A DNA stretch of 64,000 nucleotides, from contig OZ253442.1 in assembly GCA_965261085.1 (NCBI GenBank), positions 704,001 through 768,000 on the forward strand, written 5' to 3'. Within the stretch, counting starts at the first letter, position 1, and each line of letters begins with the position of its first letter. Position numbers and translations under genes: made by a program. Positions 31,826 to 63,164 of this stretch are shown piece after piece. The DNA is from a bacterium (GTDB taxonomy: Bacteria > UBA8248). Under the pieces are notes generated by a model that did not search any database, had not been told where the DNA came from, and worked only from the letters and a program-made list of their open reading frames with translations.

Positions 31826-31902
<77 letters not shown>

Positions 31903-60894: not shown

Positions 60895-61332
60895 ATGCCG
60901 AAAGTGGATCACCTGGGTTACGCCGTGAGCAATCTGGATGAGAAGAAGAACGTGATGGAGGATTTGCTGGGTTTCCGGTTTCTGGAGAGGAAGGTGTATG
61001 AGCGGCCCGGCAACACCGCCCGCCTCGATTTCTACGAGGCCGAAGGCGCCGTGATGGAATTGGTGGAGGCGAGCAATCCCGATGCGCCGCTCAATCGGTT
61101 CATCGCCGCACGCGGCGAGGGGCTGCACCACATCTGCTTCGTCGTCGAGGATTTAAGAGCCACGATGGCCGAATGGGAAGCCAAGGGGGTGGAGTTCACC
61201 CTCGCGCCCACCTATGGTTCGCGCGGCGGCGTCATCGCCTTCACGAACGCCGCCACCACGGGCGGCCTCGCGATAGAGCTGGTGCAGTACGTCCCCGAGG
61301 GGGAGGAAATACCCGACTGGGCGCAGAAGTAG
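60895..61332 (+). CDS. VOC family protein, methylmalonyl-CoA epimerase-like
   Basis: VDHLGYAV, MELVE, RGEGLHHICF.V, GG..IELVQ; GGAGG RBS. Confidence 0.85.
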   Translation: MPKVDHLGYAVSNLDEKKNVMEDLLGFRFLERKVYERPGNTARLDFYEAEGAVMELVEASNPDAPLNRFIAARGEGLHHICFVVEDLRATMAEWEAKGVEFTLAPTYGSRGGVIAFTNAATTGGLAIELVQYVPEGEEIPDWAQK

Positions 61333-61580
61333 GGGAGCGTCTTTCATAAAGGCGGGCCTTGCGTGCGAGGCGAAACCGGATGCCGGGTGGTTCTACCGGA
61401 AAATGATGCGTGGATTCGATAAAGAGGGGAGGTGGTGTTTCCCGGTTTATTCGTATCCTCATGTGATGAAGAGTGTGTCCGTAAAGAAACGGTGAAGCCC
61501 CGCTAAAGAAATTGTAAAGCTTGTTCAAAAACACCTTTTTACGCTTGACAAGTCAGGTTCAATCCCCCACTATTTTACCC

Positions 61581-61697
61581 GGCATACAATCCATGTGTGG
61601 TCGGTTTCACGGGCTGCCCGTTGAATACAAGACGACTCTTCCCGAGAGTTGAAATAGGCGGGAACCCACTTTTCTTCCAAATCGTGGATTGTATGCC
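61581..61697 (+). ncRNA. Candidate multi-hairpin RNA
   Basis: 13-bp perfect closing stem GGCATACAATCCA/TGGATTGTATGCC enclosing two hairpins each followed by TGAA; TTGACA at 61545. Confidence 0.45.
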
Positions 61698-61968
61698 AAC
61701 CAGCCCGGACTTTGTCCGCAGGCTCGAATGAATCAATCCGCGTGTGGAATTGGGAGGATTGTATGGGTCATGCGGCTTCATGATGAGTGCAACCATCTAA
61801 AATTATAAAAGCGGCTTTTTGTTTATGAAATTGATGTCAGGAGTGCATTTTAGGAGATAATGACCGTTTGGTCAAATGGGGGAATCAGTTGTTGCGGTGG
61901 AAGCGCCGCCGCTTGCGGGACGAGCTTCAAGAGCGTGTTCGGAACGAACAGGAGAAGACGGAGTATTT

Positions 61969-62066
61969 GGGGGTTACTCATTAACCGCTTGACCTCGTGG
62001 AGTCGCACTTCATTTCTTGTCGGATGGAATTCTTAGGCATGGAATGGAAAGTAATGAGTAACCCCC
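61969..62066 (+). repeat. Structured element copy A
   Basis: GGGGGTTACTCATTA...TAATGAGTAACCCCC 15-bp inverted repeat enclosing GCTTGACCTCGTGGAGT and a long hairpin. Confidence 0.85.
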
Positions 62067-62148
62067 TTCCTGTTCCGGCGCCGAGGCGGTGGACGGAGGG
62101 TGATTTTTCAAGGCGCATTCAGGGCGCGCAGGCGAAGAAGAAGAATCT

Positions 62149-62248
62149 GGGGGTTACTCATTAGCTGCTTGACCTCGTGGAGTAGCAAGTACCATTCCCT
62201 GTTCGAGTTGGGTCCTCTGGCGGGGAGTGGGAATAATGAGTAACCCCC
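62149..62248 (+). repeat. Structured element copy B
   Basis: Same 15-bp arms and 17-nt core as copy A, 180 bp downstream, different but pairable inner hairpin. Confidence 0.85.
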
Positions 62249-62635
62249 TCCTTCATCTTTCGGCGATGCGCGAGCGAGATTCAATGCGAAGCTGCGGAAA
62301 AGTTCCGACGGTTTTTTCATCAAGAGAAGCCATTCCGCGCTCCGGCCTCATCTTCTTTACCATTGCAGGTTTCGTACCTTCGATGTTAGCCGTTTTCGCG
62401 GTGGTCGGCAACAGGCCCGCTATCGGGTTCTCGCTCGATGTGAATGTTGGACGGCGTCCGCCCGGGTTTCATGTGGATTACTGTGCGGTTTGTTTCCATG
62501 GTGGCCGGCCATGGATAATGGATGGCTGCGTTCGGGGAGGATGATGATATAATTGCGAGGAAATGCAGCAGTTTCCCGAACAGCATGAAACAAGGATTTT
62601 TTCTCGAAAATAGAAATCCACGTAGGAGACCGGGA

Positions 62636-62941
62636 ATGACATGCTATCGTGTGGAAATCAAAATGAAGGTTCCCATCCTGGTGGAAAAGGATGCACCGGG
62701 ATACGTTTCGCATTGTCCACCCCTTGATATCTTCAGCCAGGGAAAAACTAAAAAAGAAGCCAAGGAAAACCTCATTGAAGCGATGCAGTTGTTCATCGAA
62801 TCCTGCTTCGAACGCGGCACGTTGGATTCTGTTCTCAAAGGTTGCGGGCTTGCTCGTGATGGTGAAAAAATCCCTATAAGGAAAGATGTCGATTCAACGT
62901 ATATCAACCTTCCCTTGGTAGCTTCCGTCGGTAGTGAATAA
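62636..62941 (+). CDS. hicB: HicB family antitoxin (short form)
   Basis: YVSHCPPLDIFSQGKT..EA.ENL.EA..LF; AGGAG RBS. Confidence 0.85.
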   Translation: MTCYRVEIKMKVPILVEKDAPGYVSHCPPLDIFSQGKTKKEAKENLIEAMQLFIESCFERGTLDSVLKGCGLARDGEKIPIRKDVDSTYINLPLVASVGSE

Positions 62942-63164
62942 ACTTTCTCCCGTTGATTGGCGCAAACTCGTCAGGATTTTCGAAGCCGTGGGTTTCAGAA
63001 TAGACCGCCAGCGCGGTTCGCATATCGTCATGGTGAAAGACGGCGTGAATAGGCCAGTTGTAATTCCCAGAGTGAATGATGTGAAGGTGGGAGTTATCAG
63101 GGCCAATTTGAGGACGGCGCGAATCACGCTGGAAAAATACTTTGAATTGCTGGAGAAAGCGTAG
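62934..63164 (+). CDS. hicA: HicA family toxin
   Basis: GF...RQRGSH..M......VVIP; overlaps hicB end. Confidence 0.9.
   Translation: MNKLSPVDWRKLVRIFEAVGFRIDRQRGSHIVMVKDGVNRPVVIPRVNDVKVGVIRANLRTARITLEKYFELLEKA

Follow-up and report, generated by a model that had tools for sequence, protein, structure and literature searches.

Two tandem units with a three-way-junction fold

The 64,000-nt stretch of bacterial DNA analysed here (the window; contig OZ253442.1 of assembly GCA_965261085.1) belongs to a genome of 4,267,820 bases, which we call G000. Two units of about 100 nt, A and B, lie in it head to tail upstream of a hicB-hicA gene pair; their coordinates are window positions:

61969-62066, + strand: unit A, a 98-nt three-way-junction RNA with a 15-bp helix P1, a hairpin P2 with the loop GACCUCGUG, and a hairpin P3 with a species-variable apex
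62149-62248, + strand: unit B, a three-way-junction RNA of 100 nt; no other member of the family described below is as well conserved

A first-pass annotation, made from the sequence alone, had described two units with a 180-bp offset, an identical 15-bp helix and a shared core, and this layout is confirmed by the sequence and by a genome-wide count. The starts of the units, 61969 and 62149, are separated by 180 bp; P1 of both is GGGGGTTACTCATTA / TAATGAGTAACCCCC, complementary at 15/15 positions in an inverted-repeat analysis; and the 17-mer GCTTGACCTCGTGGAGT occurs exactly twice in the 4.27 Mb of G000, once in each unit. Folding, a check proposed at that stage, returns a three-way junction on the + strand for both: the minimum-energy structures combine the 15-bp P1 with the P2 hairpin and the long P3 hairpin, at -40.1 kcal/mol for A (z -5.0) and -57.6 kcal/mol for B (z -8.2), with 0/200 shuffles as good in either case. 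The - strand folds are weaker (A, -28.2 kcal/mol, z -2.8; B, -41.9 kcal/mol, z -4.8). The upstream flanks of A and B are ~67% alike across 36 nt by our count, which makes the pair an old tandem duplication whose scaffold has been held constant.

A structured RNA family of one genus

A and B belong to a family of structured RNAs that is very probably real and undescribed; it is confined to one genus of sponge-associated bacteria, and selection acts on its fold of P1, P2 and P3. Of 42 genomes in the taxonomic family, 17 have the helix pattern, namely G000 and 16 of the 22 others of the same genus; it is absent from the 19 genomes of eight other genera in that family. Across the phylum, 112 sense copies (our row count) occur in 17 of 51 genomes, with 3 to 16 per genome; all 17 positive genomes are of one genus labelled Nitrospinota, where they make up 17/23 of the members, and 29 genomes of 14 other genera of the phylum gave no covariance-model hits. 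A degenerate pattern scan of one genome each for 185,579 species returned 81 stretches, all from metagenome-assembled genomes titled Nitrospinota, Nitrospinaceae or 'bacterium', except for one Candidatus Binatia contig. That contig (L214, 5358 bases) holds two copies of the D type defined below, 440 nt apart, one of them behind a C-terminus ...GAFGVNKQ of the type seen in the lipoproteins treated below; it is probably a mis-binned piece of the same sponge sample series and not a second phylum.

The first-pass annotation had advised building a covariance model and searching genomes with it. Both were done, and the homologs covary. The model, R1, was built from a plain MAFFT alignment of 35 distinct copies, and the structure scored comprises 37 pairs: 15 bp in P1, 7 bp in P2 and 12+3 bp in P3. 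In this alignment, which was not fitted to the structure, 92.3% of the cells are paired against 86.0 +/- 0.5% after shuffling, and both sides have changed in 14 of the 37 pairs, compared with 8.6 +/- 1.4 in the shuffled alignments; neither value was reached in any of 500 shuffles, and slid controls were 40-53% paired. A second alignment of 58 distinct rows, which was fitted to the model and hence favours the structure, and which includes one reverse-strand row, has 23/37 pairs changing on both sides; in it P1 itself covaries (AU/GC 36/20, UA/CG 35/18 and AU/GC 37/18). Overall, all four helices covary, and the earlier claim that the pairing of P3 is kept despite divergence in its sequence is borne out by both comparisons.

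R1 scores A at 71.7 bits and B at 110.3 bits, and for B the strands differ sharply, with 110 bits on the + strand vs 34 bits on the - strand. We take the RNA to be read from the + strand on account of these sense and antisense scores (~110 vs ~34 bits) and of the frequent G-U pairs. The G-U asymmetry, the strand scores and a terminator-like site on the + strand together bear out the same proposal in the first-pass annotation.

The copies fall into distinct types. B is present in 17/17 positive genomes, an A-type copy lies ~180-190 nt upstream of it in 11 of the 17, and a C-type copy is found at a separate locus in 11. D-type copies, which were found with R1, have a different P1, GGGGGTTGCCCGTTG / CAACGGGCAGCCCCT. 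The picture of just two copies implicit in the first-pass annotation was incomplete: G000 holds five. The P3 apex of B, GAG-UUGGGUC-CUC, is identical in 16 of the 17 family-bearing genomes; the exception is G021, where the apical stem of the best-scoring B copy is altered at one position and the apex is intact in a second B-like copy in tandem with it. The apex of A differs between species, and its CCUC is lost in G000. One locus of G021 (L037:5626-6098, G021:C7) has three tandem units ~186 nt apart, so the size of the array varies between one and three units among species.

The A/B locus

At the 17 loci the order of genes, named from our reading of the open reading frames (ORFs), is queG, a DedA-like gene, a transporter, mce (methylmalonyl-CoA-epimerase-like), a gap of 0.6-1.9 kb, A/B, a variable stretch and a 2-hydroxyacid dehydrogenase. 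The stretch between B and the dehydrogenase differs between genomes: in G000 it is filled by the hicB-hicA pair (62637-63164), and in other genomes by other small ORFs, so the spot appears to take up small gene modules.

This bears on the suggestion, made in the first-pass annotation, of a guide-, decoy- or antitoxin-like array working with the downstream hicBA. hicB and hicA do begin 390 nt downstream of B in G000. hicA-like DNA of >80% identity is, however, present in only 1/16 other syntenic loci, with two more weak or partial matches, and a terminator-like site stands between B and hicB. In this comparison the translated hicA query was in frame; the hicB query was shifted by one base, and its rows speak for DNA similarity only. 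HicAB is a protein-protein (type II) pair. Moreover, 107 of the 112 copies lie in other genomes, and the three other copies of G000 follow lipoprotein genes. We regard a partnership with hicBA as extremely improbable, and neither the guide-like nor the antitoxin-like role found support.

Around the units the following features can be made out:

61834-61861, + strand: promoter-like site (ATGTCA, 16 nt, GATAAT), ~100 nt upstream of A; 9/12, a consensus match only
61860-61877: palindrome ATGACCGTTTGGTCAAAT, overlapping the promoter-like site; conserved in 8/17 syntenic loci
61946-61953, + strand: 5' strand of a flank helix P0 of A, GAACAGGA; pairs with 62068-62075
62068-62075, + strand: 3' strand of P0 of A, TCCTGTTC; partner of 61946-61953
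62138-62148, + strand: 5' strand of P0 of B, purine-rich; pairs with 62249-62259
62249-62259, + strand: 3' strand of P0 of B, pyrimidine-rich, with the anti-Shine-Dalgarno-like CCCCCUCCUUC; conserved in the downstream alignment
62295-62317, + strand: terminator-like hairpin and T run, likely the 3' end of a B or A+B transcript

The palindrome looks like an operator for a dimeric regulator. P0 is a plausible additional helix. The flank pairing that the first-pass annotation had noted for A is present as GAACAGGA/TCCTGTTC; in B the flank helix is an inverted repeat of 26 nt at 85%; and in another species (L036) both P0 strands differ and by eye still pair. Measured against shuffled 3' flanks, the energy of the P0 duplex has a median z of -0.5, with 11/65 below -2. 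P0 thus stays at plausible, since purine/pyrimidine composition alone explains most of the duplex signal.

Contigs assembled from RNA libraries of three studies cover B together with a tail of ~70 nt (62149-62307, 62153-62326 and 62135-62322), and a metatranscriptome contig of a related strain from a fourth study (61698-62357) spans A and B. The first-pass annotation had named a lack of transcription as a point that would speak against its reading; the units are covered, although assembled contigs reveal neither strand nor transcript ends nor level, and DNA can be present in RNA libraries. The contigs give a weak hint of a B transcript of ~170 nt. No weight is placed on the parts of 61300-62700 that the contigs leave uncovered, such as A in three runs and 62381-62662.

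A second RNA-like module lies upstream at 61548-61830 (+ strand) and is homologous to the 5' part of lipoprotein leaders elsewhere in G000. It has TTGACA at 61548, followed by a 13-bp closing helix (61581-61593 / 61685-61697) and the conserved inner blocks TGAATACAAGACG and GGAATAGGCGGGAACCCAC. G000 has at least three homologs of it, at 4008438-4008319, 1673044-1672938 and 804040-803941, the last two within lipoprotein-gene leaders, and a further module-like stretch near 804345; the sequence of the closing helix differs between the copies with its pairing kept. RNA-library contigs also fall on the module (61622-61786 and 61641-61708). As a whole, the A/B locus looks like an ORF-less cassette made up of a leader-type module, the promoter-like site, A, B and the terminator.

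Copies linked to lipoprotein genes

The three remaining copies of G000 are located as follows:

G000:C1 2084749-2084853, + strand: copy C, follows a lipoprotein gene
G000:C1 1668692-1668795, - strand: copy D1, follows a lipoprotein gene
G000:C1 254891-254986, - strand: copy D2, follows a lipoprotein gene

The lipoproteins upstream of all three share a signal ...LAGCGGGGGG and a C-terminus ...GAFGAxR/KQ. Among 24 D copies from five other genomes, 18 have an upstream lipobox ORF that ends 11-137 nt before the element; of the others, at least three have the C-terminus of the family in a cut-short locus, and three are unclear. Most members of the RNA family are found between a lipoprotein gene, whose stop codon is 10-140 nt away, and a terminator, the order being stop codon, GC-rich hairpin, element and, 60-130 nt later, terminator. 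Downstream of D-type copies (L083-L098) one of two tails is present: a short one with a strong terminator (GGGACTGCCCCCCTCTC...), or a long-range hairpin of ~110 nt, GCCGACACCCC ... GGGGTGTCGGCC, which contains CCTCGGGGATTGTGTCGCAGCAA, a sequence resembling the 3' strand of the leader module.

G000:C1 encodes about ten paralogous lipoproteins with this signal and C-terminus, e.g. at 2083101-2084633, 2085913-2088126, 1672512 (-), 68685 (-) and 257073 (-). Neither of the two that were searched against Pfam gave a match. In protein atlas clusters 10-16% of the members have a TbpB beta-barrel domain, a lead only, and that the lipoproteins are TbpB-like surface barrels is likewise offered as a lead only. 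With a single 510-aa query the lipoprotein family is detected in 16/42 genomes, 15 of which carry the RNA; the exceptions are the RNA-positive G021 and G024, which gave no lipoprotein match, and the RNA-negative G015, with a weak match. This co-occurrence is not an independent test, since the genomes are kin and the genes are physically linked.

The number and scatter of the copies raise the question of an element that works as DNA: a repeat similar to a miniature inverted-repeat transposable element (MITE), or a cassette boundary for recombination or gene conversion among the paralogs, with a fold in single-stranded DNA. Such an element would account for the terminal inverted repeats, for the up to 16 copies per genome, some of them identical (three at 68.6 bits in G008), for the copies at contig ends or clustered in islands (G005, G019 and G023), and for the variable DNA downstream of B. 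Yet the loci of A, B and C are fixed and syntenic across as many as 17 species, and the copies keep one orientation relative to the lipoprotein gene. The compensatory changes and the G-U pairs on one strand argue for RNA, and the RNA-library contigs end at the terminator-like site. No target-site duplication is seen, though transposase and integrase families beside the copies were not searched for. We hold a DNA-level role to be very unlikely. Many dispersed copies matching the ends of an insertion sequence (IS) had been named beforehand as a finding that would tell against a new RNA; the copies are numerous, at up to 16 per genome, but they are not IS ends, and at least 18 of the 24 examined follow a lipoprotein gene.

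Comparison with known families and elements

That no family could be recognised, as the first-pass annotation had reported, agrees with a search of Rfam 15, in which neither unit matched at gathering thresholds and the sole match in the window was a transfer RNA (tRNA) at 31826. At E<=10 the only overlap with a unit was a 31-nt, 10.9-bit RNaseP_arch hit on the - strand, for which the gathering score is 84. ARAGORN found no tRNA or transfer-messenger RNA gene over 61400-62500, and the fold is a three-way junction, as against the four-way junction of the tRNA cloverleaf. There is no match to Rfam Y_RNA, the units do not qualify as bacterial Y RNAs of the YrlA type, and the TROVE/Ro domain (PF05731) has no match in G000, while positive controls match in 2/14 control genomes. 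A literature search at the level of titles found nothing on this RNA.

The flanks of the units show no target-site duplication, in agreement with the first-pass annotation, and the units do not qualify as a MITE or IS, though transposase genes were not searched for. The attC sites of integrons, found in cassette arrays next to intI, carry RYYYAAC, the inverse core, on the 5' side and GTTRRRY, the core, on the 3' side; the arms GTTACTC ... GAGTAAC of the units are in the opposite order and by eye two positions off that consensus, and attC was set aside, although intI was not searched for. As regards retrons, in which a gene for reverse transcriptase comes directly after an msr-msd RNA with a1/a2 repeats, no long ORF follows the units, the next ORFs being hicB and hicA; no search for reverse transcriptase families was made. 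An RNA of a type III toxin-antitoxin system, where short tandem repeats stand directly ahead of the toxin gene and are transcribed together with it, was rejected: the terminator-like site lies between B and hicBA, and hicBA is not conserved beside the units. Type III antitoxin RNA repeats are ~36 nt long, unlike the unit length and spacing of 100 and 180 nt. A small ORF ending in '...LGVTH*' in both units was likewise discarded, as copy C and other species do not preserve its stop and the differences in unit length are not multiples of three.

Complementarity of the loops to ribosome-binding sites

The lipoprotein gene at 2083101, which carries C on its 3' side, has a leader with a real ribosome-binding site (RBS), AUAUCACGAGACUAGGAGGACUCAAAAAGUGAUG, and decoys of the form ...UAUCACGAGGCUGGAGGACUCAAAC... 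In the C and D types the apical P3 loop, 5'-UUUGAGUCCUC, matches the extended, family-specific RBS GGAGGACUCA(AA) as a perfect complement over 9-12 nt, and the P3 apices of C, D1 and D2 (GAGUUUGAGUCCUC and GAGUUGAGUCCUCC) have a 12-nt exact complement in this leader and its RBS. The P2 loop of D1, CCUCGUGAUA, complements UAUCACGAGG just upstream. Loops were compared with the 2083101 leader and with 5000 random genomic windows of equal length:

P3 apex of C: 12 nt, 3/5000 random windows as good
P3 apex of D1: 12 nt, 2/5000 random windows as good
P3 apex of D2: 12 nt, 0/5000 random windows as good
P2 loop of D1: 10 nt, 26/5000 random windows as good
P3 apex of B: 9 nt, 181/5000 random windows as good
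P3 apex of A and P2 loops of A, B, C and D2: 6-7 nt, 1732-4582/5000 random windows as good, i.e. chance

The position of these complements recurs across genomes. Among the 42 genomes, 12 contain the box TCACGAG-N3-9-AGGACTCRA, with 39 occurrences in all, and every one falls in a cluster at a single locus; in the 11 genomes where C was found, this cluster is on the strand of the C-type copy, 1.6-4.2 kb upstream of it. In G000 the core GGAGGACUCA is also found ahead of the start codons of two more lipoprotein genes, at 1672525 and 68713, with a decoy at 68929. Further, GGAGGACTCA stands ahead of the start codon in three lipoprotein genes of G000, as well as in their decoys, and in 9/18 D-linked genes. 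In one case (G017 2580487-2580592) both sides have changed, the loop being UCGAGUCC and the RBS of the linked gene GGACUCG. By eye, the P3 loops of all types start with a YUNR-like turn (UUUG, UUGG, UUGA, CUGA or UUCG); the YUNR turn is typical of antisense recognition loops.

Targets of B and A were sought as well. With the same boxes B could form 10-13 bp by our reading if G-U pairs are allowed. Two candidate B targets were rejected: CACGAGGACCCAAC (G000 804335-804348) is not exact in any genome other than G000, with G022 one mismatch away and the rest no different from a reversed-pattern control; and GGAGGACCCAAAAG (G000:C1 3972626-3972639, - strand) recurs in genomes including the RNA-negative G015, with controls equally frequent. 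The latter is a perfect 10-nt complement of the P3 loop of B, and a small ORF (MEVKEAVKTAKEY...) has its RBS ~20 nt downstream of it. When A or B was compared with its own 1-kb upstream region at 17 loci, no complement of 10 nt or more was found; the search for A-type targets with two mismatches allowed was too loose, its sole exact match being the element itself; and a genome-wide search for 10-mer complements gave hundreds of chance matches and was uninformative.

Proposed function

We tentatively favour, at somewhat less than even confidence, the view that these RNAs regulate lipoprotein cassettes as anti-RBS RNAs, A and B being ORF-less copies that act in trans. A and B would be the genes of two paralogous small RNAs (sRNAs) of ~100 nt, in a family that travels with surface-lipoprotein cassettes. 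The RNA could work as the 3' end of a lipoprotein messenger RNA (mRNA) or, once released, as an sRNA: its exposed P3 loop, with the YUNR-type turn, would form a kissing contact with lipoprotein mRNAs at their ribosome-binding region, perhaps joined by the P2 loop (in the D type, CUCGUGAU) and a CCUCCUU tail; and this would alter translation, most simply by blocking the 30S subunit. The A/B cassette would be kept at a fixed chromosomal site, and as it has no ORF, A and B would act in trans.

Several points weigh against this proposal. Among the D-linked genes, 7/18 have an RBS of the GGGGGCAA type, to which the loop has no match, and 2/18 one of another type. The P3 apex is constant whatever the RBS of the gene in cis, so pairing in cis cannot be general, and there is only one compensatory case, as loop and RBS are both nearly invariant. 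A 12-mer match is expected by chance about six times per 4.3-Mb genome, and the argument therefore rests on where the match lies. P2 and P3 follow in the same order in the RNA as do their complements in the mRNA, so that no continuous duplex can form and two loop contacts would be needed. The link of B to its target is marginal (9 Watson-Crick nt), A has none, the P2 loops of A and B are at chance, and searches across genomes found no conserved target specific to B or to A. The limits of the RNA-library contigs given above count here too. Finally, the sequence of P1 is conserved beyond the needs of pairing, and every type keeps UCGU in the P2 loop as well as the junction strands GUA and GGGAA; these features hint at a protein or a processing enzyme that reads the RNA.

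These last features are what one would expect of a structured RNA with another job: a scaffold for a protein, or a module for processing or stability that ends lipoprotein transcripts. P1, UCGU, GUA/GGGAA and the P3 loop would then serve tertiary or protein contacts, and the match to the RBS would be a by-product of common descent with the leader hairpins. Consistent with this, P1 is near-invariant within each type (12/15 of its pairs are constant across A, B and C copies), all types share the junction strands and UCGU, the P3 apex is independent of the RBS in cis, leaders contain same-sense 'anti-site' sequences that resemble the loops, and a terminator always follows 60-130 nt downstream of the element. 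Against it, nothing points to a partner protein, as G000 has no TROVE/Ro protein and only housekeeping genes are conserved beside A/B; the A/B locus has no ORF whose transcript could be terminated or stabilised; and a 12-nt exact complement to the RBS of a linked gene is rare by chance. We judge a role of this sort rather unlikely.

A bolder form of the anti-RBS proposal would have the loops silence the RBS shared by sister cassettes, in an RNA-only circuit with decoy leaders in which one or a few surface lipoproteins are shown at a time and A/B is the master copy. We consider this distinctly unlikely. If true, it would provide an exclusion like that of antigenic variation without rearrangement of DNA, with constitutive A/B setting the threshold.

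Significance and relation to known systems

For the phylum concerned, a literature search at the level of titles found no described regulatory RNA. The present work gives it a structured RNA family with good support and ties this family to the fast-evolving, expanded surface lipoproteins of uncultured sponge symbionts. If the anti-RBS proposal holds, the cassettes would be under RNA control at both ends, with a decoy-RBS leader in front of the ORF and a three-way-junction RNA behind it. Coordination of paralogous surface proteins at the host interface by such an arrangement would be unusual. The defined loops and target boxes make a clean test case for reporter assays in a model host.

An anti-Shine-Dalgarno (anti-SD) sRNA from a 3' untranslated region (3'UTR) is a known kind of regulator; what is new here is the three-way scaffold, the multi-copy linkage to a paralog family, the pairing with a decoy-RBS leader and the free-standing tandem copies. 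CpxQ and MicL are base-pairing sRNAs derived from 3'UTRs, and MicL represses the lipoprotein Lpp. NarS is a 3'UTR-derived sRNA from narK, reported as a case of one mRNA regulating others (PMC7038943). Like these three, the present RNA lies at the 3' end of a gene, ends at the terminator of that gene, and has a short conserved region complementary to translation starts of other mRNAs; the idea of cross-regulation among mRNAs is shared as well. It differs in being a closed three-way junction with a 15-bp stem instead of a linear seed and terminator, in its multiple copies across a paralog family, and in the ORF-less A/B copies.

The loops recall other systems. In Staphylococcus aureus, RNAIII and the Rsa sRNAs bind Shine-Dalgarno regions with C-rich hairpin loops, RNAIII making two loop-loop contacts on the rot mRNA, and OxyS-fhlA is a two-site kissing complex. 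The common ground is an anti-SD CCUC in hairpin loops and two loops that could contact adjacent sites around one RBS. Unlike RNAIII and Rsa, the present family is from another phylum and has no homology to them in sequence or structure, and its complementarity, so far read from sequence, runs 5-8 nt past the SD into a family-specific ACUCA(AA). A further parallel is the hok mRNA, whose 3' end pairs with its 5' end and keeps it untranslated: the 3'-terminal element of the C type is similarly complementary to the translation start region of its own mRNA. Here, however, there is no toxin-antitoxin system, 9/18 D-linked genes are without a matching RBS, and A and B have no ORF. Lastly, PrrF1-PrrF2 and OmrA-OmrB are tandem sRNA paralogs, and A and B resemble them in lying head to tail at a distance of ~80 nt and in combining a constant scaffold with a part that diverges; they share no homology with them, and A and B may be made as one transcript from one promoter-like site.

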